Below, piece after piece: positions 15,398 through 40,061 of a stretch of 64,000 bases of DNA (its first letter is position 1; every line of letters starts with the position of its first letter). The DNA is from an uncultured Alphaproteobacteria bacterium (GTDB taxonomy: Bacteria > Pseudomonadota > Alphaproteobacteria > Methylaequorales > Methylaequoraceae). Location: NCBI GenBank assembly GCA_902526865.1, contig CABZMK010000001.1, positions 45,768-109,767 of the forward strand. The letters run 5' to 3'. Under the pieces are notes generated by a model that was not told the origin of the DNA, searched no databases, and saw nothing but the letters and a program-made list of their open reading frames with translations. The position numbers and the translations under genes are program-made.

Positions 15398-15430
15398 TTT
15401 AGATTGAAAACGAAAATAAAGGATTTAAAT

Positions 15431-16604: not shown

Positions 16605-16943
16605 ATGAAACCAAATCTTACTAATTTAAAACCAACAGTGACTACACCGAACAATCTAAATGAAATAAAAAAAGTTCAAGAAGAGGTTGCAAATCTGTCT
16701 CCAAAAATAATGGAACCACAAGATGGTGGTTTTTTGGATAATATTAAGTCAGCGATTCAAGAGGTTTCTGATACTCAGAAACAAAGCGCTGAATTAACGA
16801 AAAACTTTGAGCTTGGTATAGAGAACGATCTAACCAAAGTTATGATTCAACAACAATTGTCCAGTTTAGGTTTTCAAATGACTTTAAACGTAAGAAATAA
16901 AGTCTTGAGCGCATATAAAGACATTATGAATATGCCTGTTTAA
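16605..16943 (+). CDS. fliE: Flagellar hook-basal body protein FliE
   Basis: 112 aa; C-terminus ...VRNKVLSAYKDIMNMPV matches the FliE signature; position before fliF. Confidence 0.75.
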   Translation: MKPNLTNLKPTVTTPNNLNEIKKVQEEVANLSPKIMEPQDGGFLDNIKSAIQEVSDTQKQSAELTKNFELGIENDLTKVMIQQQLSSLGFQMTLNVRNKVLSAYKDIMNMPV

Positions 16944-16960
16944 ATTAAAAGGAAAAAATT

Positions 16961-18685: not shown

Positions 18686-18709
18686 TATAAATTAATAAGG
18701 AGTACCCAA

Positions 18710-19759: not shown

Positions 19760-20622
19760 TGCCACTCACAGATAAAACCGTAGCTCAGCAAAAAAGTGAT
19801 GAAAAAATTTCTGGAGCACTAAGCACTGAAGAAATTGTTAGTTTATTAAATAAAAGTAATAAAGACTTCGTAAAAGAGTCAGATATTACTTCTAACATTA
19901 CCAATTTGTTTAAAAAAGTTACTCCGTTATCCCTCGCACAAAAAAATAAAGAAATAACATCAGAAAAAAAAGAAGAAGTAACAAAAGATTTGAATGAGGT
20001 TTCTGAAAGTAAGGATAAGGAACCAACAAGTGACATTATTGATGAAAAAAAACCAGAAAATGAAAAAGTATATACAGAAATAGAAGCACAAAAATTAGCC
20101 AATGATTTAGCAAAACAATATTACAATAATGGTTATAAACTTGGAGTAAAAAAAACTACTGAAGAGCTTCAAAAAGGAGAAAAATCTCTTGCTGTAACAC
20201 TTAAAAATACAACTGATAATATTTTTAAAATGACGCCAGAATTTGTAGATGAATTAAACAAATCAATAACAAATTTACTTTCAAATTTATCAAAAGAAGT
20301 TTTAGGTTACGAGATAGATAATAACAATAAATTATTTCAAGAAAAAATTAAGCAAGTTGTCAATTCAGTTGAAAACTCAATTGAAAAAATTGTAGTTTTT
20401 TTAAATCCTAAAGATTTTGAAGCTATAAAAGTTTACAACAGTAAAAATAATTTAAGTTTATCATTTGAAATAAATCAAGATGCAAAACTTGAACGAGGTG
20501 ATATGAGAATAAAATCGGGATCAATAGAGATGAGTGACATTGTTTCTAAAAAAATCAAATATTCAATACCTAATGAAATTGAGAAAGATCTTGAAGATGT
20601 CAAATTAAATGCTCAAAAATAA
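19756..20622 (+). CDS. fliH: Flagellar export protein FliH (by position and composition)
   Basis: 288 aa charged coiled-coil protein between fliG and fliI; 4-bp overlap with fliG. Confidence 0.55.
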   Translation: MMPLTDKTVAQQKSDEKISGALSTEEIVSLLNKSNKDFVKESDITSNITNLFKKVTPLSLAQKNKEITSEKKEEVTKDLNEVSESKDKEPTSDIIDEKKPENEKVYTEIEAQKLANDLAKQYYNNGYKLGVKKTTEELQKGEKSLAVTLKNTTDNIFKMTPEFVDELNKSITNLLSNLSKEVLGYEIDNNNKLFQEKIKQVVNSVENSIEKIVVFLNPKDFEAIKVYNSKNNLSLSFEINQDAKLERGDMRIKSGSIEMSDIVSKKIKYSIPNEIEKDLEDVKLNAQK

Positions 20623-20646
20623 ACTTTTATTTAGAATTAAACATAA

Positions 20647-21966
20647 ATGGTTATAGCAAAAAAAATACTCCAGACTATAGATTCACATACTATAACTCAA
20701 AATAGGATCTATAAGAGTAAAACATCAAAATTTGATGGTAAAGTTGTCGAATGTGAAGCATTTCCCTCACCAATCGGCACAACATGTGAAATAGAATGTA
20801 ATGACAAAACTATAGTCACGGGAGAAATTATTGGTTTCAAAGAAAATAAAAATATTATTGCCGTTCATGAACATAATGCAAACATAATTTTAGGATCTGA
20901 AATAAGAGTCTTAAATTCATCAAATGATGTAATTGTGGGTTCTCATTTACTTGGAAGGGTTTTAGATGCTTTTGGGAATCCAATAGATGGTGGCGCAAAA
21001 ATAAATGACTCTGCAGAAACATGGCCGATTAATGGAAAACCCAATAATCCAATGTCAAAAAAACCGATAAATGAAGTGCTAGATGTTGGTATTAGAGCGA
21101 TCAATTCACTTTTTACTGTAGGAAGAGGCCAAAGGCTTGGAATTATTGCAGGTTCTGGAGTTGGAAAATCTATTTTACTTGGAATGATGACTAAGTTTAC
21201 TAACGCAGATGTTGTTGTTGTAGCACTAATCGGAGAAAGAGGAAGAGAATTAGGTAATTTTGTATCAGAGATATTGAATGACGAATCAAGAAAAAGGACT
21301 GTCACCTTAGCTGTACCAGCAGACAAATCTCCATTGTTAAGAATTAAAGGAGCAGAAAGAGCAACTTCAATCGCAGAATATTTTAGGTCTAAAGGAAAAA
21401 ACGTTTTGCTTATCATGGACTCTCTTACCAGAATAGCTCACGCTAAACGAGAGGTGGGGTTGGCACTGGGTGAACAACCTACTTCAAAAGGATACCCAAC
21501 ATCTGTAATTTCAATGATTCCAAATCTAATTGAAAGAACAGGAGCCGGTTCAAAAAATGAAGGAACTATAACAAGTTTCTATACAATACTGGCAGATTCT
21601 GATGACACGAACGACCCTGTGGTAGACACTGCTAGGGCAATATTAGACGGACATATTGTATTATCTAGAGAACTTGCACAACTTGGAATCTTTCCTGCAA
21701 TTGATTTAAATCAATCATTAAGTAGAGTAATGAATTCTATTGTTAACGAAGAACATCAAAATCAGTCTGAATTAGTAAAAAAATTATACTCCATATACCA
21801 AGAAAACAAAGATCTCATTCTTATGGGTGGATATGCCCAAGGGCAAAACCCTGAAATTGATAGTGCATTAAATAATTGGAATAAAATTTGCAACCATATA
21901 AAACAGCATTTTAAAAAAAAATCAAGTTTTGAAGACAGCATATCAAGCTTGAAGAAGATTAACTGA
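20647..21966 (+). CDS. fliI: Flagellum-specific ATP synthase FliI
   Basis: 439 aa; Walker A GSGVGKS, F1/T3SS ATPase-like core. Confidence 0.9.
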   Translation: MVIAKKILQTIDSHTITQNRIYKSKTSKFDGKVVECEAFPSPIGTTCEIECNDKTIVTGEIIGFKENKNIIAVHEHNANIILGSEIRVLNSSNDVIVGSHLLGRVLDAFGNPIDGGAKINDSAETWPINGKPNNPMSKKPINEVLDVGIRAINSLFTVGRGQRLGIIAGSGVGKSILLGMMTKFTNADVVVVALIGERGRELGNFVSEILNDESRKRTVTLAVPADKSPLLRIKGAERATSIAEYFRSKGKNVLLIMDSLTRIAHAKREVGLALGEQPTSKGYPTSVISMIPNLIERTGAGSKNEGTITSFYTILADSDDTNDPVVDTARAILDGHIVLSRELAQLGIFPAIDLNQSLSRVMNSIVNEEHQNQSELVKKLYSIYQENKDLILMGGYAQGQNPEIDSALNNWNKICNHIKQHFKKKSSFEDSISSLKKIN

Positions 21967-21970
21967 TGAC

Positions 21971-22384
21971 ATGAAAAAAAGAAAATATGATATTTTTTTA
22001 ATCCTTAAAAAATTAAAGAAAAATAAGCTGCTTAACAATTTATCTACACTACATAATGAAAAAAAAAGGCTAGATTTTGTAAAAGAAACGCTGAATGAAA
22101 TGTTAAATCAAAGCTCTGTAAACAAACTTGGTGAACTTTCAGGTTCAGATTTAAAGTTTAGAGCTTCTTTTACAAGCAATTTAATTAATAAACTGGAGGT
22201 TTCAAAAAATAGGGAAAATCATGTATTAGACGAAATTAGTTATAATTTAAAAGAAATAGTAAAAATTGAAAAACAAAAAGAAAAAATAAGTGAAAAAAAG
22301 AAATTTATCAAAATACAAGAGGATAAAGTAAAAGAATTAAAAAAAGAAAATTATTTCAACCCTAAAAATTCAGTTTCTCTTTGA
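21971..22384 (+). CDS. fliJ: Flagellar export chaperone FliJ (by position; coiled coil)
   Basis: 137 aa K/E-rich coiled-coil ORF directly after fliI. Confidence 0.5.
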   Translation: MKKRKYDIFLILKKLKKNKLLNNLSTLHNEKKRLDFVKETLNEMLNQSSVNKLGELSGSDLKFRASFTSNLINKLEVSKNRENHVLDEISYNLKEIVKIEKQKEKISEKKKFIKIQEDKVKELKKENYFNPKNSVSL

Positions 22385-22387
22385 TAG

Positions 22388-22403
22388 TGGCATTATAATT
22401 GCA
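22388..22403 (+). promoter_or_regulatory. Sigma54 promoter TGGCAT-N5-TTGCA
   Basis: GG-N10-GC, excellent match, 25 bp upstream of the fliK-like ATG. Confidence 0.6.
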
Positions 22404-22427
22404 CAATTGCTTTAACAAGGGGCAGTT

Positions 22428-23738
22428 ATGGTTGCAATAAAAAATGATACTAGCAAAAACATAAATTTCGTAAACTCAACTTTACATTCTGAAAAAACAA
22501 ATGAGCTATTTGCTGAACTCTTTGCACTAATAAATACAAATAGTTTAGATCCTGAAAATAAAAATTTACTGAAAGATGTAGTCTTACAAAAACCTGAAAC
22601 TAAAGAATTTTTGGATGTAAATAAAAATATCCCTGAAAATAGTTTGTTGAAAGTTACTTCCGAGCAGAAAAATAAATTTGAGGTTACAGATTCTGAATAC
22701 GAGACTGCAAAATCACTTATAGAGGTATTTTATAAAGAAATTGGTATTGTCGAACCTTTGAATCAAACAAAAAATGCTAATCCAAACAGTTTAAATCAAA
22801 ATCCAAAATCATTATTAAATAAAAATTTTACAACAGGAAAAAAAAAAATAGCTGTAGAGAATAAATTGGATTCTAATGAGTTTGATTTAGCTCTAAAAAA
22901 TGATAATTCAAAAAAAATTGTTATAAACATAATTAAAGATCCTTCACATTACAAAAAAATTAATAAAGATGATCACCGTCCAAAATTTTTTACAGAAAAT
23001 AAAAGTCAGATTGATAATAAAGTACTAAAGCAGCAAAATGAGTTTAATTACAAAGCAAATAACACAAACTTTGAAACTGCGAGTATTAACAAAAAAATAA
23101 ACAAAAAAAATAAACAATTTAAAGTTTCAGCAAAGGATAAAATTGAACACAACCACCTAATTACAAAACAAGTTAAAATTGAGAATAGAAAAAATACTAA
23201 TTTTACTCAAATTATGAAAAAATCAGGAGAAATTCAAATAGGTCAGAAAAGAGAAATCAGCAATAAAGATTTTTTAAAAACCGTGGAAACTAAAGATAAT
23301 CAGATGCAAAATAAAGGGCAAATCTTTTTGGATTTATTGGAGAGTAGCTGGGGCGAAAAATTCTCTCGAATTGTAAAAAATGCGGTCAATAACGGTGTAA
23401 ACAAATTAGAAATTCAAGTTAAACCAAAGAATTTAGGCAAATTAAATCTCGAGGTTTCTGTGAAAAATAGTGTCACAGCCATTAATATTGGATCAGAGAA
23501 TCAAGATGTTGTAAGTCTTCTTAATGACAACCTTCCAAAACTTTTAGAATCAATTGATAAAGAAAGCAAAAGTTTCTCAAGTAATATGAATAATGAAGAT
23601 AACAATAGTAATTATTTTAACCAAAGAAATGAAAAAGAAAATTTTTTGTCGAACAATGAAATTTCCAAAAAGAATAAAAAAGAAGTTGAAAATAAAAATC
23701 AAAAATTTAGTAATCATAATATTGATGTGAATGCCTAA
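22428..23738 (+). CDS. fliK: Flagellar hook-length control protein FliK-like
   Basis: 436 aa low-complexity N/K-rich protein with C-terminal Flg_hook-like domain (LEIQVKPKNLGKLNLEVSV...AINIGSENQDVVSLL). Confidence 0.65.
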   Translation: MVAIKNDTSKNINFVNSTLHSEKTNELFAELFALINTNSLDPENKNLLKDVVLQKPETKEFLDVNKNIPENSLLKVTSEQKNKFEVTDSEYETAKSLIEVFYKEIGIVEPLNQTKNANPNSLNQNPKSLLNKNFTTGKKKIAVENKLDSNEFDLALKNDNSKKIVINIIKDPSHYKKINKDDHRPKFFTENKSQIDNKVLKQQNEFNYKANNTNFETASINKKINKKNKQFKVSAKDKIEHNHLITKQVKIENRKNTNFTQIMKKSGEIQIGQKREISNKDFLKTVETKDNQMQNKGQIFLDLLESSWGEKFSRIVKNAVNNGVNKLEIQVKPKNLGKLNLEVSVKNSVTAINIGSENQDVVSLLNDNLPKLLESIDKESKSFSSNMNNEDNNSNYFNQRNEKENFLSNNEISKKNKKEVENKNQKFSNHNIDVNA

Positions 23739-23765
23739 TTAATTTAAAGTATTAAGGAGAGAATA

Positions 23766-24398
23766 ATGGCAGAAGAGAATAATCAAGAAACTGAAAAGAA
23801 GTCACCCTTAAAATTAATTTTGATGATTGTAGGTGGCATAGTCCTTCTAGGAACAGGTATTGGAGTTGGAATTTTCATGGGTGGGGGAGAGGATACAGAT
23901 CCATCAGCTGAGATATCTCAGATTATTGAAAAAAAAGAAAACCCTGAACCATCAAAAAATGAAGACGATGAAAATATTGATGAGGCTGCTGCTGAATGTG
24001 CGGAAGAAGAAAAAGACGAAGAAGGCAACTGTCCTTCAGGTCCAAAGAAGATTCCAAAGATCACACCTGAAGAAGAAATATTTACAACAACGTATTATGA
24101 ATTTCCTGGTAATTTCACAGCCAATTTAAAGGGTTCAAAAAAGTTTCTTCAACTCTCAGTCGGAGTTTCAACTCAATATGACGAACAAGTAATGGTAAAT
24201 GTAGAGAGTCATCAACTTGCTCTTAGATCTGAAATATTGACCATCATGTCGGAATTTTCTTCTGAAGATATTGCTGGTAAAGAGGGTAAAAATAACTTGG
24301 CTGAATCATTGAGAGATGGAATTAATGAGGTTCTTGTAAAAGTTGAAGGCTTTGGTGGAATCGAAAATGTTCATTTTACCTCATTTGTAGTACAATAG
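23766..24398 (+). CDS. fliL: Flagellar basal body-associated protein FliL
   Basis: 210 aa; single N-terminal TM then FliL periplasmic domain (YYEFPGNFTANLKGSKKFLQLSVGVS). Confidence 0.7.
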   Translation: MAEENNQETEKKSPLKLILMIVGGIVLLGTGIGVGIFMGGGEDTDPSAEISQIIEKKENPEPSKNEDDENIDEAAAECAEEEKDEEGNCPSGPKKIPKITPEEEIFTTTYYEFPGNFTANLKGSKKFLQLSVGVSTQYDEQVMVNVESHQLALRSEILTIMSEFSSEDIAGKEGKNNLAESLRDGINEVLVKVEGFGGIENVHFTSFVVQ

Positions 24399-24410
24399 GA
24401 AATTAAAATT

Positions 24411-25388
24411 ATGTCTGAACCATCAAGGAAATTATCAACCGAAGAAGTCAACGCCTTAATGGACGGTCTTAAATCAGGAGATTTAAGTGCATCAACTTCA
24501 GTTAAAGATGGAACTGCGATTGAGTACAAAAAATTTAATTTTGGCTCAGACGATCTTTCACTTTTAGGAGACTATTACGCTTTAAGACTGATAAATGAGA
24601 GGTTCGCAAGAACGGTTAGAGGAGTATTTCTCCCATTGCTAAGAGTTCAACCTAGAATAAGTTCGTTTCCCCCAGAAGTAAAATCTTTCGAAGAATACAG
24701 TTCGGGTTTAGATGCATTTATGAGTTTAACAAATAGTAGAATAGACGAGTTAAGAGGTTCCATGCTGACTGTTCTGCCACCATCTTTTGTTAGCCTTTGT
24801 ACTAGTAGTAGATATGGAGGAAAATTAGAGGTTAATGACGCTTCGAGAAGTGAATTTACTGCAACCGAAGAAAAAATAATCGAAGTTATAAATAATGGAA
24901 TCTCAGAGGTTCTTGAACAATGTTGGAAAGATCTAACGCCTATTTCAATCAAATTTCAAAGTAGAGAGCAAAATCCACAGTTTGCTGCTTTTGTAGAATC
25001 TACAGATTTAGTTATAGTATGTTCATTTGTAATGCAGTTACCTAACATTGACTCAATGTCTTTCGATGTAGTTTACCCACTTCAAACACTTAAACCAGTT
25101 TCATCTTTACTGAGATCCAGAGTTCAATCTGATGTAGTTGAGTCTAACATGACGTGGAGAGATAAGCTAGAAAAAGCAATATTAGAAATTCCTTTATTAG
25201 TCAAAAGTAATCTAAGTGAACCGGTTGTCTCAATGTCTAAATTGCTGAGAATGAAGGCAGGAGACACGTTAAACGTAAATTTAGAAGATAAGGTCGATTT
25301 TTATGTTGAAAATCAAAAATACTTTAAAGCTGAAATGGGAGAACTTAACGGCAATGCTTCAGTAAAGCTTGCTACACGAAATAATTAA
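24411..25388 (+). CDS. fliM: Flagellar motor switch protein FliM
   Basis: 325 aa; N-terminal CheY-binding-like LSTEEVNALM; FliM middle domain; C-terminal SpoA-like. Confidence 0.8.
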   Translation: MSEPSRKLSTEEVNALMDGLKSGDLSASTSVKDGTAIEYKKFNFGSDDLSLLGDYYALRLINERFARTVRGVFLPLLRVQPRISSFPPEVKSFEEYSSGLDAFMSLTNSRIDELRGSMLTVLPPSFVSLCTSSRYGGKLEVNDASRSEFTATEEKIIEVINNGISEVLEQCWKDLTPISIKFQSREQNPQFAAFVESTDLVIVCSFVMQLPNIDSMSFDVVYPLQTLKPVSSLLRSRVQSDVVESNMTWRDKLEKAILEIPLLVKSNLSEPVVSMSKLLRMKAGDTLNVNLEDKVDFYVENQKYFKAEMGELNGNASVKLATRNN

Positions 25389-25399
25389 GGAGAAAAATT

Positions 25400-25801
25400 A
25401 TGAATGCAGAAACCGCAGAAAAAGATAAAAATCAAACCGAGCAAGCTCAGGAAGAAACTAAGGCACCTGAAGCCTCAGCTGAAAATCAGGTCAATAAACC
25501 TGAGACAGAATCCACAAAGACCGCAGACAAAAATACTGCAGCAGTAAGTAATTTGAGACTTCTGGAAAACATAGAAGTAAAACTTACTGTTGAAGTTGGA
25601 AATACTGAAATTAAAATCAAAGACTTGTTAAGATTAAATGAAGGATCAGTTGTTGAACTAGATAGATTGGCTGGAGACGCTTTAGATATTTTAGCAAATG
25701 GGACAAAAATTGCTAAAGGCGAAGTTGTTATGGTTGGTGAAAAATTTGGTATAAGATTTACTGAAGTTGCTACCCCAGAGGAACTAATTGAAAACTTATA
25801 A
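25400..25801 (+). CDS. fliN: Flagellar motor switch protein FliN
   Basis: 133 aa; C-terminal SpoA domain (LLRLNEGSVVELDRLAGDALDILANGTKIAKGEVV). Confidence 0.85.
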   Translation: MNAETAEKDKNQTEQAQEETKAPEASAENQVNKPETESTKTADKNTAAVSNLRLLENIEVKLTVEVGNTEIKIKDLLRLNEGSVVELDRLAGDALDILANGTKIAKGEVVMVGEKFGIRFTEVATPEELIENL

Positions 25802-25802
25802 T

Positions 25803-25818
25803 TGTCAGGAAATTGACA
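25803..25818. promoter_or_regulatory. 16-bp palindrome TGTCAGGAAATTGACA, candidate activator (FleQ-box-like) site about 65 bp upstream of a sigma54 promoter
   Basis: Second copy of the TGTCAGnAAAnTGACA motif; followed by a T-run and could double as a weak terminator stem after fliN. Confidence 0.5.
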
Positions 25819-25880
25819 TCTTCTTTTTTAATCAATAATTTATAAATAAAATCAACAACTTACAATAAGTGTCGTTGTTA

Positions 25881-25896
25881 CGGCAAGGTTTTTGCA
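25881..25896 (+). promoter_or_regulatory. Sigma54 promoter CGGCAA-N5-TTGCA upstream of fliO
   Basis: GG-N10-GC spacing; lies in the fliN-fliO gap. Confidence 0.55.
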
Positions 25897-25929
25897 TTCC
25901 TCTTGTATTAACTAATCAAGAGGGGAAAA

Positions 25930-26256
25930 ATGCCAGAATATGTAGGTCCAAGTTTATCAAACTATTTACTCGTATTAGGATTTTTAGCTCTGCTTTTTGT
26001 AGGCTTGTATTATATAAAGAAAAACAAACACATAATCTCAAGAACCATTAATTCAAAAAAAAGAATGAAAGTATCTGAAGTTACCCTACTGGGACAAGGC
26101 GATAGAGCTTTAATCTTAAATTTAGATAATAAAGATTATCTTTTTATTTCTGGGAAAAATTCTGGTTCTTTATTGACAGAAATAAAAAATAACAGTCTTA
26201 AAGGTAACAATCTTGAGAAAGTATTTGAAAATAGGCTAAGAAATGAAAAAAATTAA
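25930..26256 (+). CDS. fliO: Flagellar biosynthesis protein FliO
   Basis: 108 aa with single TM; position before fliP, which it overlaps. Confidence 0.6.
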   Translation: MPEYVGPSLSNYLLVLGFLALLFVGLYYIKKNKHIISRTINSKKRMKVSEVTLLGQGDRALILNLDNKDYLFISGKNSGSLLTEIKNNSLKGNNLEKVFENRLRNEKN

Positions 26257-26989
26257 TTTTTTGATTTTAATTATTATTCTTTTTCCATTTTTTGGGTTTT
26301 CTCAAATGGCTCCTGAAGGATTAGAAGCATTAACTATTACTGAGTCAGAAAATGGCACAAAAACATATTCTGTGTCTCTAAAAATTTTAGCCTTGATGAC
26401 AGCTTTAACAATTCTGCCTTCACTCGTTTTAGGAATGACTGCTTTTACAAGAATTATTATTGTTATGTCTATTTTAAGACAAGCTCTTGGCACACAGCAA
26501 ACACCGCCTAACCAAATTTTAGTTGCTATATCCTTATTTCTTACTTTTTTTGTAATGGCACCCACCTTTAATAAAATTTACTCTGATGTTTCCGAACCTT
26601 ATAATAATGGAGAAATGAATTTATCTGAGGCAGTTGAAAGTGGCGGGGGAGAGCTAAAAAAATTCATGGTTAAAAATACAAGAAAAAATGACCTGCTAAT
26701 GTTTTCAGAGATGGCAAATGAGGGAAAGTTTGAAAATAGTTCTCAAATTCCCTTTTACATTGTTTTACCAGCATATATTACAAGTGAATTAAAAACTGCA
26801 TTTCAGATTGGTTTTTTACTTTTTTTACCTTTTTTGGTAATAGATATGGTTGTAGCTTCAGTTTTAATGTCGCTTGGTATGATGATGTTGTCTCCAATGT
26901 TAATTGCCCTTCCCTTTAAACTACTCCTTTTTGTTTTAGTTGATGGTTGGTCAATGACTGTGGGATCTCTGGTTGGAACGTTTTCATGA
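26243..26989 (+). CDS. fliP: Flagellar export apparatus protein FliP
   Basis: 248 aa; signal peptide; FliP core (MTAFTRIIIVMSILRQALGTQQTPPNQ). Confidence 0.9.
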   Translation: MKKINFLILIIILFPFFGFSQMAPEGLEALTITESENGTKTYSVSLKILALMTALTILPSLVLGMTAFTRIIIVMSILRQALGTQQTPPNQILVAISLFLTFFVMAPTFNKIYSDVSEPYNNGEMNLSEAVESGGGELKKFMVKNTRKNDLLMFSEMANEGKFENSSQIPFYIVLPAYITSELKTAFQIGFLLFLPFLVIDMVVASVLMSLGMMMLSPMLIALPFKLLLFVLVDGWSMTVGSLVGTFS

Positions 26990-27009
26990 ATTTAGTGTTT
27001 TAGGAGTAA

Positions 27010-27282
27010 TTGGTAATGGGATTTGATCAAAATGTTGAAATGATAAGATTAGCTTTTTATCAAGTTTTGATTTCTAGTGGCCCATTTCTAGGTGCAGCTC
27101 TTGCTATTGGCTTGGTTATTGGAATTATTCAAGCAGCCACTTCAATCCAGGAAATGACACTTAGTTTTGTTCCAAAAATTGTCATAGTTATCTTTGCAAT
27201 AGGATTTTTGGCTAATTTTCTTTTAGTAAGTTTAACCGATTATTTTCAATTTATTTTTGATACAATTTCAGGAATAAATTAA
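27010..27282 (+). CDS. fliQ: Flagellar export apparatus protein FliQ
   Basis: 90 aa, two TMs, FliQ-like. Confidence 0.8.
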   Translation: MVMGFDQNVEMIRLAFYQVLISSGPFLGAALAIGLVIGIIQAATSIQEMTLSFVPKIVIVIFAIGFLANFLLVSLTDYFQFIFDTISGIN

Positions 27283-28097
27283 TGTTTATTCCATTACCTT
27301 TTTACAGTCCTATGGATGCCCTACCAGGACTCGAATTAAACTCTCTTATTGAGTACTTATTTAAATTCTTTTTATGTTCGATAAGATTATCAGCATTTTT
27401 CATATCAAGCCCTTTTTTTGGTTCAAGAGTTATTCCTTTAAATGTAAAGATAATTTTTTCTTTAGTGATTTCATTTTTTTATTTTGGGTATCTCTCTGAT
27501 ATTCAAATATCAGAACAAATTCTTGATAACCTTGTTATTGTAGTAATTGCAGAAGCTTTGATTGGATTATCATTGGGTTTAACATTAACAATATGGTTTG
27601 CAGCAGCAAGTTTGGCTGGAGAGAAAATAGCAGCTACTACTGGGTTAGGTTTTTCCCAAATGGTTGATCCAGATACAGGCGGACAAACACCCGTAATTAG
27701 TCTAATATTAGACTTATTCTTAATTACTATTTTTTTATCGTTAAATGGACATTTAATTGCGATTGAATTTTTATTTAAAAGCTTTGAAATTTTTAATATT
27801 AATGACGGAATACCCCCATTTGGTCTTGTCGGTTTGGGCATAGAAGCTGCTGGTGCTATGTTTTATACGGGAGGATTAATAATGCTTCCAGTTGTTGGAG
27901 CACTTTTACTAACAAACATTGCAATAGGAATTATAACAAGAGCAGCTCCTCAATTAAATATGTTTTCGTTTGCATTTCCTGTAACTATGATTCTAGCTTT
28001 CTTTATAATGTATTTAGCTTCTCAATCTATAGGAAATGCATTTGCAGAGCTTACCAATAGTTCTTTAGAATCGATAGAAAATATACTCGTTAATTAA
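27282..28097 (+). CDS. fliR: Flagellar export apparatus protein FliR
   Basis: 271 aa polytopic; follows fliQ with start/stop overlap. Confidence 0.8.
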   Translation: MFIPLPFYSPMDALPGLELNSLIEYLFKFFLCSIRLSAFFISSPFFGSRVIPLNVKIIFSLVISFFYFGYLSDIQISEQILDNLVIVVIAEALIGLSLGLTLTIWFAAASLAGEKIAATTGLGFSQMVDPDTGGQTPVISLILDLFLITIFLSLNGHLIAIEFLFKSFEIFNINDGIPPFGLVGLGIEAAGAMFYTGGLIMLPVVGALLLTNIAIGIITRAAPQLNMFSFAFPVTMILAFFIMYLASQSIGNAFAELTNSSLESIENILVN

Positions 28098-28112
28098 AAA
28101 GGATATAATTGA

Positions 28113-29264
28113 ATGGCAGAAGACAAAGACGAAAGTCAAGAAAAAACCGAGGAACCAACCGCCCGAAGACTTGAAAAAGCAAAAGAGGATGGGAAAGTTC
28201 TGTCTTCAAAAGAAGCTTTTGTTTTTAGTTCAATGTTCATGGGAGTATTACTATTTTATCTAGCTCCAATGCTTTTAGACGATTTTTTAAAAATTTGTAA
28301 ATCTCTATTTTCGTTTGGGCCAGAGTTAGCCTCTGGAAAGTCTCCTCTGGAATCTGTTACTGTAGTTGTAAAATTTTTCATTCAAGTATTTTTAATTTTT
28401 TCAATACCACTATTAGTAGTAAGTGTTCTAACGCAATTTTTAATCGGTGGAATAAACTTCTCCTTAAAGTCAGTTTACTGGAAGTTTGAAAAAATGAATC
28501 CAATTAAAGGATTAAAAAGAATATTTTCACTTAAAGGATTAGTAGAGTTAGTTAAAGCTATATTGAAAGTCAGTCTTCTTGGTCTGGTAGCTTTTTATCT
28601 GATTGAAAATAATTTATCTGATTTAGTCAACTTAACAACTGCTAATATTTTTTCCGCAGTAAATAGACTTTTTTCTTTTTTTCCAGAAATAATTGCCTAT
28701 CTCCTTGTCGTTCTCGCATTCATAGCTTTTATAGATGTGGTTTACCAAAAGTATGATTATATTAAGCAACTAAGAATGTCTCATCAAGACCTCAAAGACG
28801 AATACAAAGAAACTGATGGACAACCAGAAGTCAAACAAAAAATAAGAAAACTTCAAGCCGAAGCTGCAACAAAAAGTAGAAAAGAAGCATCGTCTGTTGA
28901 TAACCTTGAAGAAGCTACTGCAATAATTACAAACCCAACACACTTTGCCGTAGCTCTGAAATATGAGGTTGGGGACGCAAAAGCTCCTACAATTATATCA
29001 AAAGGAAGAGGTAAAATTGCTGAATCTATAATTAAGAAAGGAAAAGAACTTAAGATTGGTACAATGCAAAGTCCTAAACTGGCAAGAGCAATATACTATA
29101 CATCTGAAATTGGTGATGAAATTATGAGTAAGCTTTACAATGCTGTTGCTATTGCCTTAGCATATATTTATAAAATAGATAATGGAGAAGAAATTGAGAA
29201 ACCAGAGATAGAGGTACCTGAAGATATGATTTTTGATGAGTTTGGGAGAAAAAATGATCAATAG
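28113..29264 (+). CDS. flhB: Flagellar export apparatus switch protein FlhB
   Basis: 383 aa; four TMs then cytoplasmic domain with NPTH autocleavage motif (ITNPTHFAVAL). Confidence 0.9.
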   Translation: MAEDKDESQEKTEEPTARRLEKAKEDGKVLSSKEAFVFSSMFMGVLLFYLAPMLLDDFLKICKSLFSFGPELASGKSPLESVTVVVKFFIQVFLIFSIPLLVVSVLTQFLIGGINFSLKSVYWKFEKMNPIKGLKRIFSLKGLVELVKAILKVSLLGLVAFYLIENNLSDLVNLTTANIFSAVNRLFSFFPEIIAYLLVVLAFIAFIDVVYQKYDYIKQLRMSHQDLKDEYKETDGQPEVKQKIRKLQAEAATKSRKEASSVDNLEEATAIITNPTHFAVALKYEVGDAKAPTIISKGRGKIAESIIKKGKELKIGTMQSPKLARAIYYTSEIGDEIMSKLYNAVAIALAYIYKIDNGEEIEKPEIEVPEDMIFDEFGRKNDQ

Positions 29265-29475
29265 AAATATTTCACAACTAATTGTTACTGTTGCATTTCT
29301 TTACAGCTCACTAATATGCCACTTTAAGGCTATCGAAGTGTTCGAAGAGAAAAATTTTTTGCTTGCTTTATTTCTTTGGTTTTGTGCTTTAACTTCTTTT
29401 TGTGGTGCGTTAAGATTCCAAATTGCAAAACTATATTATAAAATAAGAGATCTAACAAAAAATGAACCAAAATAA
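29233..29475 (+). CDS. Small membrane protein (80 aa), translationally coupled to flhB
   Basis: Two hydrophobic helices; overlaps the flhB 3' end; no homology recognised. Confidence 0.35.
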   Translation: MMSLGEKMINRNISQLIVTVAFLYSSLICHFKAIEVFEEKNFLLALFLWFCALTSFCGALRFQIAKLYYKIRDLTKNEPK

Positions 29476-29662
29476 CTGTAATAACTGCACGCACTTTTAT
29501 GTGACCCACAAGAAAAACTTTCCTTATGGTTGTAAAGCATTTGGTGTAATTTCAAAAAATAATCCATATTTAGAAATAAAGAAAGTTTCTGGCACAGATT
29601 GTGCACTATTTCAAAAAAAACAAAAAAGTGTTAAAACATTTAATAAAGGAAGAATTGCATGA
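29462..29662 (+). CDS. Cys4 mini-protein (66 aa), possible zinc ribbon
   Basis: CNNC...C...C spacing (Cys 6, 9, 24, 47); overlaps neighbouring ORFs by stop/start. Confidence 0.35.
   Translation: MNQNNCNNCTHFYVTHKKNFPYGCKAFGVISKNNPYLEIKKVSGTDCALFQKKQKSVKTFNKGRIA
29590..29605 (+). promoter_or_regulatory. Sigma54 promoter-like element TGGCAC-N5-GTGCA inside the Cys4 ORF
   Basis: Perfect -24 TGGCAC and GG-N10-GC spacing, about 55 bp upstream of the coiled-coil gene start. Confidence 0.4.
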
Positions 29663-30384
29663 CACAACAACTTAATGCAATGCAAGAAAGCATAAAAATA
29701 GCTTTGGATGCGGCCGACGCAGCCACTGATGTGACCTCAGAATATAAAAGAATTAAAAACGAATATTTAAAGACGGAGCAAAAAATGAAAGAAATTCACA
29801 AATATACAACAATCATTTTTTCAAGTTCAATTGCCACAGCTGTAATAGCAATTATTTTAACAGGATTATTATATTTTAAATCACTTTCAGAACTTGAAGA
29901 TATGACAAGTACTAGTCGAGAAGCTCTAGTTGTATTTGCTGAAAATGTTGAAAATGTTAACAAAGCTGTAGATAATATGAATCAAAGTTTGGCTAGACAT
30001 ACTGATCTATTAAATGCTAGTGACGAGATGAAAGTTAAACTTGAAGAACTTTCAAACGCAATTAATTCAAATGATAAAAAACTTATGCTAAATTTATCAA
30101 AGGAAATATCAAACCTATCATCCGGGCTTTCTAAATCAATTAAAAACGAGGCAGACAAACTCAATAAGTCAATTCAAGAGTCAGGTGTAGTCACCTCCGC
30201 TAGTGTTAACAAAGAAATTGGTAAACTGTTGAAAGATAATAAGAAGAATCAAAATGTTAAACTTTTAAAAGAACTTTCTAATAGCACCTCTTCATTAAAT
30301 GCAGCACTCGAAGCGATTTCTAGCCAAAATAAACAGTTAGTTAAGGAAATAACAGATCAAAAAGAAAGCATAACTTTCCCATAA
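29659..30384 (+). CDS. Membrane-anchored coiled-coil protein (241 aa)
   Basis: One TM (IIFSSSIATAVIAIILTGLLYF) followed by long heptad-rich domain; unknown function. Confidence 0.45.
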   Translation: MTQQLNAMQESIKIALDAADAATDVTSEYKRIKNEYLKTEQKMKEIHKYTTIIFSSSIATAVIAIILTGLLYFKSLSELEDMTSTSREALVVFAENVENVNKAVDNMNQSLARHTDLLNASDEMKVKLEELSNAINSNDKKLMLNLSKEISNLSSGLSKSIKNEADKLNKSIQESGVVTSASVNKEIGKLLKDNKKNQNVKLLKELSNSTSSLNAALEAISSQNKQLVKEITDQKESITFP

Positions 30385-30391
30385 TAATATT

Positions 30392-31192
30392 ATGTCTGAA
30401 ACAAAAGAAGGAAATTTTTTCTTAAAAATTAATAAAATAAATGGTGGAAGTCATGCAGCAAATAATTTCTTAAAGCCAGACGATATAATTGTTGCACTTG
30501 ATAATCAGATTTATACTTTCGGTGAAAAACAACTAACTTCTGATTTAAAAGAATTAAAAAAAAGTAATCAAAAGTCTATGCTCACAGTTTTAAGAGAGGA
30601 TATATTTTTTAATTTGTTAATAGAAAATAGTTTAGGTTGCAAATTTACCACAACTACAGCTGAGGAAACCAATAAAATTAAATCTGATTATTTATCACAA
30701 GAAGTAAATGATCTTGACGAATTAAAAGAATTTATTGGAATGAGAGACGTTTACAGAAACTACGAAGTCATTGAAAATGCTAATTCTTTATCAGCAGGCA
30801 TTTTTCCCCCACTTTGGTTAGCTTATTCACAAAAATGGTGGCTTTTGTTTCTATTTACAGCAATTATGGCAGTATCCTTATCAGTTAATATTTATGTTTT
30901 TTTCTTGGGGTGGTTACTAACTTCAATTTACTGTTATAAAGCCCAATTAAACCTTCTCTTCAGCTTTTCCATGCTAGAGGGAAAAGTTTTTTGTGTAAAA
31001 TTGTTGTCTAAATCAATTGATGAGGCTCAAAAAACCATAAGAAAGCTTGACCCAAAATCCAAATTTAAATTTTCAAAACTACCAAAACCACTTGTAGAAG
31101 AGGTTGAAAAAGATAAAAAAGACGACAACGTTAACAAAAAAGACAGTAATAAAGAAAACATTGTTGATGAAAATCAGACAGTAATAGTATAA
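30392..31192 (+). CDS. Membrane protein with N-terminal PDZ-like segment and DUF2628-like TM region
   Basis: INKINGGSHAANNFLKPDDIIVALDNQ resembles the PDZ ligand-binding region; FPPLWLAYSQKWWLLFLF resembles the DUF2628 motif; Lys-rich tail. Confidence 0.4.
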   Translation: MSETKEGNFFLKINKINGGSHAANNFLKPDDIIVALDNQIYTFGEKQLTSDLKELKKSNQKSMLTVLREDIFFNLLIENSLGCKFTTTTAEETNKIKSDYLSQEVNDLDELKEFIGMRDVYRNYEVIENANSLSAGIFPPLWLAYSQKWWLLFLFTAIMAVSLSVNIYVFFLGWLLTSIYCYKAQLNLLFSFSMLEGKVFCVKLLSKSIDEAQKTIRKLDPKSKFKFSKLPKPLVEEVEKDKKDDNVNKKDSNKENIVDENQTVIV

Positions 31193-31201: not shown

Positions 31202-31801
31202 ATGGTAGCTGATAAATATACAATCCAAGCTGAAACTTTAATGAAGGCAGCGATTGAGGAATATACTGAAGTAATTCAAGAAGTGAAGTCATCTGATGCT
31301 AATTTAACGACGCTTAAAGGCATCAGAATCAATATTCAAGGCAAACCAAGACGATTGGTGGATGTCGGAGATATAAAAAAAACTGAAAACGAAAATGTTG
31401 TTCAAATTTTAGTTTTCAACACAGATCATATACCTCTATTAACTGAAAAAATCGATGAAGTTGAGTTCAATTACGAAGTTGATGGACAATTCATTAACAT
31501 TGATCTGCCAGAACCCAGTTATAAACAATTAATGGAAGTTGTCGACGATCTAAATAGAAAGAAAAATTCTGGTTTAGCCAGACTGACTAAGGCTAAATCC
31601 GAAGCAACCACAAGGGCAAGAACAGCACTCGAAAATGATTTCATTACTCAGGGTGTTGCTAATGCAGTTTCCAGGAAATGTTCAGAAATGCACGAGCTAT
31701 ATTCGTCTAAAGTCAACGAACTTACAATTGAGAAGATAAAGGAAATTCTTGGTAACGAATATTTTGAAAAATATAAAAACGAAGAACTTGAATATGAGTG
31801 A
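31202..31801 (+). CDS. Divergent ribosome recycling factor (RRF/Frr)-like protein
   Basis: 199 aa. Pattern alignment to RRF: (IQGKPRRL vs YYGTPTPL), (ILVFNTDHIPLLTEKI vs INVFDRSMSPAVEKAI), (INIDLPEPSYKQL...ARLTKAKSEATTRARTALEND vs IRVPLPPLTEERRKDL...ARVAVRNVRRDANDK). Confidence 0.35.
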   Translation: MVADKYTIQAETLMKAAIEEYTEVIQEVKSSDANLTTLKGIRINIQGKPRRLVDVGDIKKTENENVVQILVFNTDHIPLLTEKIDEVEFNYEVDGQFINIDLPEPSYKQLMEVVDDLNRKKNSGLARLTKAKSEATTRARTALENDFITQGVANAVSRKCSEMHELYSSKVNELTIEKIKEILGNEYFEKYKNEELEYE

Positions 31802-32725
31802 TTAAAGTTTCAAATTTAAGTTTGACCCAATATTTTCATTTTTAAGATCCATATATTTTTTATTAATTAAGTCTTTGTTTTTCAGAACATTTTTATTTTT
31901 TTCAACTTCCAGAGAGCTAGGACTCCAGCTCGGATAATGAAAATTGATTTCTCCAAATTTTTCTTCTTTAAACTTTTTATTTTCGTTTTTATCTTTTATC
32001 AACCCAGATATTTGATTATTTATTTTTACTAACTCAGACTTACCATCAAAAGCTAAAGTAATATTTTGTTTATTTTCCAAAACAACTGGTTTAGTCGAAT
32101 ATTTATTTATATTACTTTCAATAGCCTTATTTTTATTTTCGATACCTATATTTTTGAAGTTGGAATAGTTAGTTTTTTCAAAATTATTTTTAGTAGATGC
32201 TACATAATTTTTAATGCCAGGTTTTTGGTTACCTTTCCACCATTCTCCGTAATTATTTTTATTAGCAATAACCACTGAAGAATTTTTGTTATCATCTATT
32301 TTATTATTTTCTGCAATCTGACTCTCTTTTTTCTTATCGTCTTTCCAAAGATTGCTTATTCCTGTGGCATCTAGCGCCAGTTCTGACGGTGTTTTATCAA
32401 ATATTTTATTAAAAACCCAGTTTCCAAAACCAACAATCGCTCCAATCGGACCACCATACATAAAACCACCGAGACTATTTTGAACTAAGTCTCTATCGGA
32501 TTTACTATCTTCAGAATTTATGCTTGAATAAATTCCACTTATAATTGGAAGATTTTGGAAAGGGTTAACCAACCCTCTAAACCAATCCCAAAAAGAGAAA
32601 TCGTCTTTTCCGGGTTCATTAACCTTTATATCGTTTAAAAGGTGTTGATTTTTAGGTTCTATATTTTCTTTTACAGGGGAAACGGTATTTTTAGAAATAT
32701 GAAATGGACTATTTTCTATTATCAT
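31802..32725 (-). CDS. Hypothetical protein (307 aa) co-transcribed downstream of motB
   Basis: Glycine-zipper-like hydrophobic segment GGFMYGGPIGAIVGFGNWVF; N/K-rich C-terminal half; start abuts the motB stop. Confidence 0.45.
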   Translation of the reverse strand: MIIENSPFHISKNTVSPVKENIEPKNQHLLNDIKVNEPGKDDFSFWDWFRGLVNPFQNLPIISGIYSSINSEDSKSDRDLVQNSLGGFMYGGPIGAIVGFGNWVFNKIFDKTPSELALDATGISNLWKDDKKKESQIAENNKIDDNKNSSVVIANKNNYGEWWKGNQKPGIKNYVASTKNNFEKTNYSNFKNIGIENKNKAIESNINKYSTKPVVLENKQNITLAFDGKSELVKINNQISGLIKDKNENKKFKEEKFGEINFHYPSWSPSSLEVEKNKNVLKNKDLINKKYMDLKNENIGSNLNLKL

Positions 32726-36247: not shown

Positions 36248-37708
36248 ATGCAAATTTCTCAGAATCTCAAATTAAAACAGAGTCAATCTTTAGTTATGAC
36301 TCCTCAGTTACAGCAAGCAATAAAATTACTCCAGTTGAATAATTTAGAATTAACAAATCTAGTTAATAAAGAGCTTGAAGAAAATCCTTTTTTAGAGAAT
36401 GAAAACGATGAATTGGATAATCAAAACGATCAAGACACAGAAAAAACGAATGAGTTAGATGAATCTTTTGAAAATGGCGAATCAATTTCAGATGAACCTT
36501 GTAATGATGATTTTGAAAATAGATGGGATAATGATGCGACTTTTGAATTTAATAGTAAACATTCATCCACTGACAGTGTTGATGTTGGAAGCGTAATAGA
36601 GCAGACACTTAGCAATAAAGTTTCTTTAAAATCTATATTAAGTAATCAAGCAGATTTAGAATTCAATGACGATGATGATAAGAAAATTGCAGAAATATTA
36701 ATTGACTACGTTGACGAAAATGGTTGGATCACTGAAAGTTTAGAAGACATTGAGGAATTTAGTGGATTTAACTTTAAACAAATTGAAAAAGTTTTAGAAA
36801 GAATGCAATGTTTTGAGCCAAATGGGGTATTTGCTAGAAATCTGAAAGAATGTCTCAAAATTCAACTTATTAATGAAAACAACTTGGATTCAAAGAAAGA
36901 AATTATTATCGAAAATATTGATTTACTTGGAAGTGGAAATATTAAAGGACTTCAAAAACTAACAGGACTAAAAGAAGAAAAGCTAAAAGACGAAATAAGG
37001 CTTATTAGAGCTCTAAACCCAAAACCAGGAAGCAAGTATTCAACAGATAATGACAATATCTTCCATCCAGATGTAATTGTAACAAAAAATAATTCTGATT
37101 GGGCAGTGGAATTAAATCATGGCACACTTCCGAAAATTAATATTAATAATGACTATGTCAAAGAAATAGAAAGACTTCAATGTGGAGAATCGGATAAAAA
37201 ATTTATAAATGAATCTTTAAATTCTGCAAGATGGTTGCTTAAAGCAATCCAACAACGAAACGTTACAACACTAAAAATTAGTTCCGAAATTGTTAATCAA
37301 CAAAAGGAATTTTTCGAAAAGGGAAAAAAATATCTAAAACCAATGGTTCTTAAAGATGTTGCAAAAAAAATTAATATGCATGAGAGCACAGTTAGTAGAG
37401 TCACATCAGACAAATTAATGCTAACACCAAGAGGTGTTTTAGAAATGAAACTATTTTTTAGTGCTTCGATAAGTAGTACCAAGAAAGGTGAGACTCATTC
37501 AGCAGAGTCAGTAAGAGAATCACTTAAAAAATTAATTAGCAGTGAACCCTTAAACAACCCATTGAGTGATGAAATGTTGGTAGAAAAACTTCAAGATGAA
37601 GGTATTGATTTAGCTAGAAGAACAGTTGCAAAATATAGGGAGTTGCTTAATATACCAGCCTCTTCGGTTAGAAGAAAAATTATGAAAATTCAAAATATGA
37701 ATATTTAG
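36248..37708 (+). CDS. rpoN: RNA polymerase sigma-54 factor RpoN
   Basis: 486 aa; N-terminal region I (LKQSQSLVMTPQLQQAIKLLQLNNLEL), acidic region II, C-terminal RpoN box (ARRTVAKYRE). Confidence 0.92.
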   Translation: MQISQNLKLKQSQSLVMTPQLQQAIKLLQLNNLELTNLVNKELEENPFLENENDELDNQNDQDTEKTNELDESFENGESISDEPCNDDFENRWDNDATFEFNSKHSSTDSVDVGSVIEQTLSNKVSLKSILSNQADLEFNDDDDKKIAEILIDYVDENGWITESLEDIEEFSGFNFKQIEKVLERMQCFEPNGVFARNLKECLKIQLINENNLDSKKEIIIENIDLLGSGNIKGLQKLTGLKEEKLKDEIRLIRALNPKPGSKYSTDNDNIFHPDVIVTKNNSDWAVELNHGTLPKININNDYVKEIERLQCGESDKKFINESLNSARWLLKAIQQRNVTTLKISSEIVNQQKEFFEKGKKYLKPMVLKDVAKKINMHESTVSRVTSDKLMLTPRGVLEMKLFFSASISSTKKGETHSAESVRESLKKLISSEPLNNPLSDEMLVEKLQDEGIDLARRTVAKYRELLNIPASSVRRKIMKIQNMNI

Positions 37709-40057: not shown

Positions 40058-40061
40058 TAAA

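Follow-up and report, generated by a model that had tools for sequence, protein, structure and literature searches.

A divergent family of ribosome recycling factor-like proteins, found in one lineage at the end of a flagellar export operon

Introduction

Ribosome recycling factor (RRF), the product of frr, is regarded as a universal, single-function bacterial translation factor. Its gene is normally among the slowest-evolving genes of a genome, and the usual setting in Proteobacteria is the cluster tsf-pyrH-frr-uppS-cdsA. What, then, is a gene for an RRF-like protein doing at the end of a flagellar export operon? Such a gene is found in a stretch of 64,000 nucleotides from an uncultured alphaproteobacterium (GenBank assembly GCA_902526865.1, contig CABZMK010000001.1), which is referred to here as the window. 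It could be the only frr of the organism in an odd place, or a paralog whose fold has been put to another use, flagellar or not. Judging from profile searches, alignments, and structure prediction, the RRF-like proteins are a discrete family that is descended from RRF and has kept its L-shaped two-domain fold. The gene in the window is probably a paralog, and its flagellar surroundings are constant in its own lineage and do not appear to be family-wide.

Homology to ribosome recycling factor and predicted fold

The gene and the parts of its product are as follows.

31202..31801, plus strand: RRF-like gene, 199 aa, ATG to stop (TGA); from the open reading frame (ORF) call, Pfam RRF, TIGR00496, AlphaFold2 (AF2)/Foldseek, and the ratio of nonsynonymous to synonymous substitution rates (dN/dS)
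31205..31279, plus strand: helix 1 of domain I, aa 2-26; from DSSP on the AF2 model
31295..31504, plus strand: domain II, alpha/beta, aa 32-101; from the AF2 model, column counts, and the match to 1wih
31508..31633, plus strand: hinge P103-x-P105 and helix 3 (aa 107-144); from the hhalign register and column counts
31634..31798, plus strand: tip loop E144-N-D-F-I148 and helix 4 (aa 150-196); from the AF2 model and column counts

The frame is intact from start to stop, exactly where the preliminary description of the window had placed it. That description aligned the product with RRF motif by motif and judged it far more divergent than a housekeeping frr, and both judgements are borne out. Against the Pfam RRF model (PF01765), the window protein scores 46.2 bits (E=5.6e-12), which passes the gathering score of 29.7 bits, and the match runs the length of the model, from position 5 to 164 of 164. 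The NCBIfam frr equivalog model TIGR00496 gives 30.5 bits and does not reach its cutoff of 149.1. At the level of phmmer, the comparison with solved RRFs is marginal (Aquifex, E=4e-6; E. coli, E=0.12 and 15 bits). Alignment of the family with canonical RRFs by hhalign covers 174 columns, nearly gapless, with a probability of 98.4% and E=5e-15. The motif pairings proposed earlier, GKPRRL with GTPTPL, VFNTDHI with VFDRSMS, and LPEPSYKQL with LPPLTEERR, recur in the hidden Markov model (HMM) alignments, and only the register of the last helix had been drawn two residues off.

Structure prediction with close homologs only reached a predicted local distance difference test (pLDDT) score of 77 with a poor domain II, and is superseded by a run on a 27-sequence alignment that includes distant family members (pLDDT 91.1, predicted template modelling score (pTM) 0.77). 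The predicted layout comprises a helix (2-26), an alpha/beta domain (32-101), and two further helices (107-144 and 150-196), as expected for RRF, in which the alpha/beta domain II interrupts a three-helix bundle after helix 1. When this model is compared with the PDB by Foldseek, the best 26 matches are all RRFs, with E down to 1e-12, and structures of RRF domain II alone (1wih) and domain I alone (1y69) match separately. The global TM-scores against RRFs are 0.54-0.60, as expected for a hinged two-domain protein. By its Pfam match and its L-shaped fold, the window protein is an RRF homolog at the superfamily level, with a similarity that chance would not produce. By its equivalog score, its functional residues, and its genomic context, it is not to be filed as Frr.

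Conserved and replaced residues

The residues by which RRF contacts the ribosome have been described in detail. Residues of helix 3 run along helix 71 (H71) of the 23S rRNA, and only the two arginines among them are conserved between bacterial and mitochondrial factors; Arg132 is the most affinity-critical residue for the 70S ribosome. The P-loop is contacted by the Ser-x-Asp tip, a motif that bacterial, mitochondrial, and chloroplast factors have in common, and an Asn/Pro-rich segment of domain II faces the ribosomal protein S12 (PMC6486771).

The invariant positions of the canonical RRF set were read in the family alignment of 27 sequences. By the register of phmmer and hhalign, the window protein and E. 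coli RRF share the same numbering for residues 87-163, and K132 pairs with R132. On helix 3, R110 is replaced by Leu in 21 of the 27 sequences and R129 by Thr, Ala, Ser, Val, or Gly. R132 becomes Lys in 26 of 27, the only conservative retention among the helix-3 arginines tested. K138 is Arg in 23 of 27, K115 is Asp in 17 of 27, and E108 is variable. In the remaining parts of the protein, G30 is replaced by Ser, Ala, or Glu, R31 by Asp or Glu (21 of 27), and Y45 by Gln, Glu, or Asp; residues G88, N90, and P91 of the LGLNP motif are unconserved. The Ser-Glu-Asp tip is replaced as well, with Glu, Asp, or Thr at S149, Gln, Pro, or Ala at E150, and a variable residue at D151. The canonical positions kept are M13, A32, I82, P103, I148, and K178.

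The window protein follows this pattern. Its helix 3 has K132 at the R132 site, R138 at the K138 site, Leu for R110, and Thr for R129, and its domain II is devoid of the canonical GRA and LGLNP motifs. The arginine-rich helix, described earlier as kept, survives in its net basic charge (+4, versus +5 in E. coli) and not in its arginines, as R110 and R129 are lost and R132 is Lys. With R110, R129, the tip motif, and LGLNP replaced, the family is, by the alignment, without most of the ribosome- and S12-contact determinants that even organellar RRFs keep.

The family also has conserved motifs of its own. They consist of an N-terminal (D/E)-S-Y-S, G-x-x-R-R-L-x-D, and P-K-P-T (hinge P-x-P-T), followed by K-x-K-x-D-T-x-Q-R-I-x-A-A-x-x-x-E-Y-I-E, K-R-x-x-x-L-G, and a C-terminal tail; looser forms are K132-x-[DE]-[TA]-x-x-R138 on helix 3 and E-x-[FY]-I at the tip. 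In helix 1, the motif is Y6-(S/T)7, with Y6 in 27 of 27 sequences and S/T7 conserved, and M14 corresponds to the canonical M13. In domain II, it is G47-K-P-R50-R51-L-x-D54, with R50 and D54 each present in 26 of 27. The C-terminal tail of the window protein extends 14 aa past the canonical end, and tails of 14 to ~80 aa are seen across the family sequences examined. From the topology of RRF, we infer that the family-specific conserved residues cluster at the tip of domain I and on one loop of domain II.

A discrete family in marine Alphaproteobacteria

In an exhaustive search of 1.84 billion cluster representatives with a profile of close homologs, no more than 114 proteins pass the threshold of E<=1e-3. 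Most of them, whether fragments or full-length (192-268 aa, with 200-245 aa typical), have the family motifs. Only a handful are RRFs of canonical length (182-189 aa; E=1e-7 to 1e-4), and the named canonical RRFs come from SAR202 (Chloroflexota) and Patescibacteria, and none from Alphaproteobacteria. In a jackknife comparison, the window protein scores 87 bits on a profile of distant subgroups only, its own clade being excluded, and 61 bits on the canonical RRF profile, on which the other subgroups score 20-45 bits. Canonical RRFs score 8-30 bits on the profile of the RRF-like family. Distant family members mostly give 25-27 bits or no match with Pfam RRF, which is under the gathering threshold.

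The source labels of all subgroups are uncultured 'Alphaproteobacteria bacterium', or Rickettsiales, Pelagibacteraceae, Paracoccaceae, or Parvibaculales metagenome-assembled genomes (MAGs) and single-amplified genomes (SAGs); the single exception is one partial sequence whose record is labelled Bacteroidota. The samples are mostly marine, and the GC content of the loci ranges from 29% to 53%. The annotation of the family is split, NCBI often giving 'hypothetical protein' and JGI and some others 'ribosome recycling factor'. The literature searched describes neither a family of bacterial RRF paralogs nor an RRF-like protein linked to the flagellum, and the family appears to be undescribed. The evidence for a distinct, conserved, and abundant RRF-like family is solid.

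One profile match was rejected. P0125, a protein of 2529 aa, scores 164 bits over 23 stretches, and is a repetitive surface-type protein with an 'AAIEEIQTELD'-type repeat; the match is spurious and is a caution for profile searches with this family.

With the close-family alignment as query and one genome per GTDB species, 29 species were found to carry the close family; the majority are represented by GORG single-cell genomes and by Mediterranean or Tara MAGs. Closest to the window protein is that of AG-891-J16, at 98% identity. Looked up as an exact match, the window protein has no entry among public assemblies. Among these species, the ORF is unbroken in 28 of the 29 loci, and in the remaining one (L049) the tblastn match is split into segments. 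The dN/dS of the gene, measured between the window and five close relatives, is 0.015-0.042, and among 16 sequences with 68-89% identity to the window protein, ~90 residues never vary. Because of this low dN/dS, the RRF-like gene is real, functional, and under strong purifying selection, and it is not a decaying copy. The extreme divergence from canonical RRF could have pointed to a decaying or non-functional frr duplicate, and this explanation is effectively refuted by the intact frames, the dN/dS, and the invariant residues, as well as by family-wide motifs that persist down to ~18% identity.

Genomic context and the flagellar link

The genes around the RRF-like gene that matter for its context are listed below.

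16605..29264, plus strand: flagellar operon fliE-fliF-fliG-fliH-fliI, two unassigned ORFs at the fliJ/fliK positions, and fliL-fliM-fliN-fliO-fliP-fliQ-fliR-flhB; from NCBIfam
28113-29264, plus strand: flhB
29233..29475, plus strand: o80, a small membrane ORF with a TTG start that overlaps the end of flhB by 32 nt
29462..29662, plus strand: o66, small and Cys-rich (CxxC...C...C), overlapping o80 by 14 nt and o241 by 4 nt
29659..30384, plus strand: o241, a membrane and coiled-coil protein
30392..31192, plus strand: o266, a membrane protein with a weak PDZ-like N-terminus and a weak DUF2628 match
31802..32725, minus strand: o307, the last gene of the convergent motA-motB-o307 unit; from the ORF call
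32727-33911, minus strand: motB
33922-34695, minus strand: pomA/motA-type stator gene
36248..37708, plus strand: rpoN (sigma-54), part of a conserved synteny block

The position at the end of the flagellar export operon is as previously described. The RRF-like gene is the last after flhB-o80-o66-o241-o266, and its start codon lies 9 nt from the end of o266. The run from flhB through the RRF-like gene would form one transcription unit, since all of its junctions are overlaps or gaps of <=9 nt. On the other side, the stop codon of the RRF-like gene (TGA) and that of o307 (TAA, minus strand) abut at 31799-31804 with 0 nt between them; as they adjoin directly, there is no room for a terminator between the flagellar export and stator operons.

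This arrangement is stable in close relatives. In all sufficiently long loci of the 29 species, the gene order is identical, namely fliM...fliP...fliR-flhB-o80-o66-o241-o266 and the RRF-like gene, convergent to o307-motB-motA, and next come Lcl_C, rpoN, and M23. Within this clade, the RRF-like protein diverges about as much as FlhB or RpoN and faster than FliM, FliP, and MotA.

A more distant lineage (L018/L019, 45% GC) shares the block with rearrangement. It contains bactofilins, M23, rpoN, Lcl_C, motA-motB, the RRF-like gene, o257, o245, o90, o82, and flhB, and here the RRF-like gene follows motB on the same strand and is convergent to the flhB operon. The RRF-like protein of L018/L019 is ~18% identical to that of the window in the alignment and gives no BLASTP match. 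Because the block is shared and the gene follows motB in L018, the position of the RRF-like gene at the flhB/motAB junction is old and its operon membership is not fixed. Between the window and L018, the identity is 72% for MotA, 69% for FliP, 46% for FlhB, 40% for RpoN, and 39% for o241. With ~18% identity against 39-72% for its neighbours, the RRF-like protein evolves, by this comparison of sequences, faster than they do, unlike a core translation factor.

The remaining subgroups show a wide range of surroundings. P0132, which is 31% identical to the window protein, is encoded directly 3' of fliG (FliG_C, 122 bits) and adjoins a gene for a cyclic nucleotide monophosphate (cNMP)-binding protein. 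P0189 (409 aa; L020 936-2165) consists of an RRF-like domain (Pfam RRF, 43.9 bits) fused to a C-terminal BLUF domain (PF04940, 83.7 bits). Its gene is followed by malonyl-CoA decarboxylase and adjoins homologs of the ORFs that occupy 42.2-43.7 kb of the window. At a distance of 3-10 kb are a rod gene, fliA, flhG, and flhA, together with a 382-aa ORF without a Pfam match on record in the usual position of flhF. By Pfam scan, the window protein has no BLUF domain, and P0189 is the only family member that does. Near P0352 are rpoN, M23, bactofilins, and an ion channel, with no flagellar genes in view. P0293, which is very abundant with contigs up to 1.1 Mb, lies between a RuBisCO/Calvin-Benson-Bassham (CBB) operon and glutathione S-transferase (GST) plus htpG. 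P0401 (contigs of 2.07-3.78 Mb, 53% GC) is found among metabolic genes, and a relative 89% identical to it is labelled Parvibaculales. P0467 and P0368 have metabolic or suf-operon surroundings, and P0234 adjoins an adenylate/guanylate cyclase on a short contig.

Overall, flagellar neighbours are present in 4 of the 10 sampled subgroups, an rpoN-M23-bactofilin remnant in 1, and no flagellar gene within 10 kb in 5. Upstream of stand-alone family members, a scan for the sigma-54 and sigma-28 consensus gave nothing above background. The flagellar link is real in the window lineage and does not appear to be family-wide, and the linkage may be inherited synteny. The gene is co-oriented and tightly packed with the export operon in 29 species. 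The suggestion that the RRF fold was repurposed specifically for the flagellum is weakened by the wider family, where flagellar neighbours are limited to these 4 subgroups and the L018 gene is co-directional with motAB.

Several observations on neighbouring genes stand apart from this question. The idea that small neighbour genes are common across the subgroups was rejected, because the 69-aa ORF upstream of P0132 and the 94- and 128-aa ORFs on either side of P0293 are not homologous to o66, o241, or o266. Cyclic-nucleotide genes recur near RRF-like genes (L012 1448-1879, L010 848-2125, L015 7477-8115, L007 15991-16395, and L051 2044-2364). Their products are either an adenylate/guanylate cyclase or small cNMP-binding proteins that stand alone, and those of L012 and L007 share 30% identity. 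In L012 and L010 they directly adjoin the RRF-like gene, elsewhere they lie 2-8 kb from it, and the recurrence could be chance. The carrier of P0293 (L007-L009), a marine alphaproteobacterium of 31% GC, has a complete CBB operon at 2599-8497, immediately upstream of the RRF-like gene. This operon encodes the large and small subunits of form I RuBisCO, a CbbX-like AAA protein, aldolase, phosphoribulokinase, and fructose-bisphosphatase, together with a divergent LysR regulator.

Paralog or sole copy of frr

The gene does not lie in the usual neighbourhood of frr, as had been noted before: the tsf-pyrH-frr-uppS setting is present neither in the window nor in any of the 10 subgroup contexts, and none of tsf, pyrH, uppS, and cdsA was found in the window. 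When the six-frame ORFs of the window were all searched by phmmer, neither E. coli Frr nor the window protein as query recovered anything but the RRF-like gene itself.

We consider it likely, on comparative grounds, that the genome also has a canonical frr at another place and that the RRF-like gene is its paralog. This is favoured because the TIGR00496 score is five-fold below the equivalog cutoff, because residues kept even in organellar RRFs are lost, and because the divergence between lineages exceeds that of FlhB and RpoN. It is also favoured because the family is present in non-streamlined genomes of 2-3.8 Mb in other orders, so that several losses of frr would be needed otherwise, because one member is fused to BLUF, and because no subgroup lies in the usual frr neighbourhood.

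The alternative, that this is the only frr of the organism, a relocated and fast-evolving gene for a still functional recycling factor in a streamlined genome, is distinctly unlikely in our assessment. It is consistent with the full-length match above the Pfam RRF threshold, the right length and fold, and the strong purifying selection on the gene. Moreover, the genomes are AT-rich (~30% GC) and apparently small, and relocation and divergence occur in such settings. Against it stand, besides the equivalog score (30.5 versus 149.1 bits) and the divergence between lineages, the replacement of the H71, P-loop, and S12 contact residues that are conserved from bacteria to organelles, and the occurrence of the same family in genomes of 2-3.8 Mb and 53% GC and as a BLUF fusion. 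It would require canonical frr to have been lost in several orders independently. In addition, the nearest canonical RRFs come from Chloroflexota and Patescibacteria and not from Alphaproteobacteria.

Proposed function

The reading that we favour, with about an even chance of being right, is that of an RRF-derived family that is most likely not the housekeeping factor and whose members are paralogs serving as ribosome-docking regulators or specialised recycling factors. If the gene is a paralog, docking on the ribosome without EF-G-dependent splitting is a tentative proposal drawn from the residues, and its chances are a little below even. The RRF-like protein would dock in the tRNA cleft of the ribosome along H71, because the fold, the hinge prolines, the net-basic helix 3, and a Lys at the Arg132 site are retained. 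It would not split the subunits with EF-G, because it has lost R110, R129, the tip motif for the P-loop, and the segment that faces S12, and because it carries a C-terminal extension at the hinge end. In this way, it might occupy or silence ribosomes as a regulator, or it might be a specialised recycling factor. In the window lineage, its synthesis would be coupled to the expression of the flagellar export gate, and other lineages would couple it to different inputs, one of them to the BLUF light sensor with which it is fused.

A different explanation is that ribosome binding is gone and that the RRF scaffold, a long three-helix bundle with a swivelling alpha/beta domain, is a signalling or motility adaptor, used for protein-protein interaction or as an output module. 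In the window clade, its target would be the flagellar motor, stator, or export gate, and elsewhere it would respond to light (BLUF) or cyclic nucleotides. The genomic context lends it some support: the gene lies at the flhB/motAB operon junction in two lineages whose RRF-like proteins are only ~18% identical, next to fliG in a third, and near flhA, flhG, fliA, and a rod gene in a fourth, and in L012, L010, L015, and L007 a gene for a cNMP-binding protein or a cyclase lies either beside it or no more than a few kb off. The BLUF fusion, the loss of most canonical rRNA and S12 contact residues, and a set of family-specific conserved residues that differs from the canonical one also agree with it. 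Nevertheless, flagellar genes are missing within 10 kb in 5 of the 10 subgroups, and in a sixth only the rpoN-M23-bactofilin block remains; no promoter for sigma-54 or sigma-28 rises above background ahead of the stand-alone members; and K132 at the Arg132 site and the net-basic helix 3 would have no explanation if RNA binding were lost. We hold the adaptor to be rather unlikely, though more probable than a sole frr.

Several points weigh against the ribosome-docking paralog that we favour. When the six-frame ORFs of 49 loci (784 kb, ~20 kb per gene) were scanned with the canonical-RRF HMM, only the RRF-like genes themselves were recovered, so that no other RRF is seen in the window or in these related loci, an outcome that is also expected by chance. 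The window clade is the most canonical-like subgroup (61 versus 20-45 bits), and some pipelines and sources name members of the family 'ribosome recycling factor'. All three agree with a sole frr. Ribosome binding is purely an inference, with the P-loop tip, R110, R129, and LGLNP all lost, and a clash between the C-terminal tail and the ribosomal site of canonical RRF is conceivable. The BLUF fusion and the cNMP-binding and cyclase neighbours fit a protein-protein signalling adaptor at least as well.

It is conceivable, although on balance doubtful, that the whole family has been repurposed from recycling to a regulatory module that links environmental or assembly signals to the ribosome or the flagellar motor. 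The inputs of such a module, put forward with equal reserve, might be the expression of the export gate here, blue light via BLUF elsewhere, and possibly cyclic nucleotides.

Other features of the window

The flagellar cluster is headed by a further regulatory gene.

15404..16588, plus strand: sigma-54-dependent activator, head of the flagellar cluster

A sigma-54-type promoter match, TGGCAATATTTTTGCT, is located at ~15382-15397 on the plus strand and starts 22 nt upstream of this activator gene. It fits 10 of the 11 specified sigma-54 positions, a level reached by ~1% of background windows. This suggests that the activator may be autoregulated or under another enhancer-binding protein. Within the operon, the ORF at the fliK position matches Flg_hook in relatives.

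The four ORFs between flhB and the RRF-like gene (window 29233-31192; L018 10721-12874; L001 8235-9973) are each found in 27-28 species loci, a number limited by locus length. Three of the four have BLASTP homologs of 26-40% identity in L018, always after flhB. For o80, tblastn matches are present in 27 of the 29 species loci, and a similar 82-aa ORF exists in L018, as judged by eye. o66 is 40% identical to o90 of L018 and matches no Pfam family, and its cysteines suggest that it is possibly zinc-binding. o241 is 39% identical to o245 of L018 and 73-99% identical in the 28 species loci that cover its position, and o266 is 26% identical to o257. o80, o66, o241, and o266 are candidate new flagellar accessory genes. 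o307 is found in every species locus that extends past the RRF-like gene (27 of 29), and it is missing from the L018 locus.

A block with an SLT lytic transglycosylase, an M23 peptidase, three tandem bactofilins, and four small ORFs (window 38036-43720) travels with the flagellar cluster. The SLT-M23-bactofilin block is seen in the window, L001, L018, L051, and L020, in lineages of 29% to 47% GC. The four small ORFs at 42180-43720 have homologs in L020 that are 21-52% identical. In L051, M23 and bactofilin genes occur with rpoN and an ion channel nearby and no visible flagellar genes.

The remainder of the window contains ordinary housekeeping and metabolism genes, and Rfam detects no RNA families in its 64 kb. 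A mobile or defence origin of the RRF-like gene was considered and rejected, with no phage tblastn match and no PADLOC family. On the minus strand, 55231-58585 carries adjacent genes for a class-V aminotransferase, a histidine-specific S-adenosylmethionine (SAM) methyltransferase (Methyltransf_33, 322 bits), and an FGE-sulfatase-domain protein, a trio that resembles an ergothioneine- or ovothiol-type cluster (egtD, egtB, egtE-like). Also on the minus strand, 44657-47683 encodes a 1007-aa protein whose residues 115-611 match the phosphoenolpyruvate (PEP) carboxylase Pfam model in part and at a low score (70.7 bits; model 99-623 of 919); the protein is possibly a divergent PEP carboxylase.

Comparison with known systems

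Frr (PF01765, TIGR00496): The RRF-like family resembles Frr in its full-length homology, its L-shaped two-domain fold, and its similar length, and it keeps the hinge Pro103, M13, I148, K178, and a basic residue at 132. In contrast, it falls short of the equivalog model, and R110, R129, E108, K115, GRA, LGLNP, and the Ser-Glu-Asp tip are replaced. It also has its own motifs and a C-terminal tail, is never found in tsf-pyrH-frr-uppS among the loci seen, and outpaces its flagellar neighbours in divergence.

Organellar RRFs: The human mitochondrial RRF (mtRRF) and the chloroplast RRF are alike in having the RRF fold, lineage-specific extensions, and a specialised setting, and they are among the Foldseek matches. 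However, both helix-3 arginines, the tip motif, and the Asn/Pro residues that face S12 are preserved in them (PMC6486771), and the RRF-like family is without these. The organellar extension is N-terminal, whereas that of the RRF-like family is C-terminal.

Balon: This aeRF1-like hibernation factor is a precedent for a translation-factor fold that docks on the ribosome without a catalytic or recycling role, as in the mechanism that we favour. It differs in its fold and in its binding partner.

BLUF photoreceptors: In P0189, the RRF-like part sits at the position of the output or effector module, as in BLUF photoreceptors; the window protein differs in having no such domain. To our knowledge, though no search was aimed at it, a BLUF protein whose partner domain is of the RRF type has not been described, and the fusion is intriguing.

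FlbT/FlaF and CsrA-FliW: FlbT and FlaF of Alphaproteobacteria and the CsrA-FliW system are flagellum-linked translational regulators, small proteins whose genes lie among those of the flagellum and that couple translation to assembly. They are a conceptual parallel only, with no kinship to the RRF-like protein in sequence or fold. The FlbT and FlaF families have no match among the scanned ORFs of the window, a few small ORFs lying outside the scan.

Significance

The practical consequence concerns annotation, as pipelines disagree on whether members of the family are 'ribosome recycling factor' or 'hypothetical protein'. PF01765 and TIGR00496/frr are used as single-copy markers in phylogenomics and genome quality control. 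If a canonical frr coexists with the RRF-like gene, a second PF01765 match could distort single-copy-marker estimates for these MAGs and SAGs. If the whole family has indeed been repurposed for regulation, no earlier family of bacterial RRF paralogs would have a function other than recycling, and this would be a new example of a translation factor recruited for regulation, in abundant ocean bacteria. For streamlined marine bacteria, it would also provide a concrete candidate for how translation is coupled to motility or light sensing.

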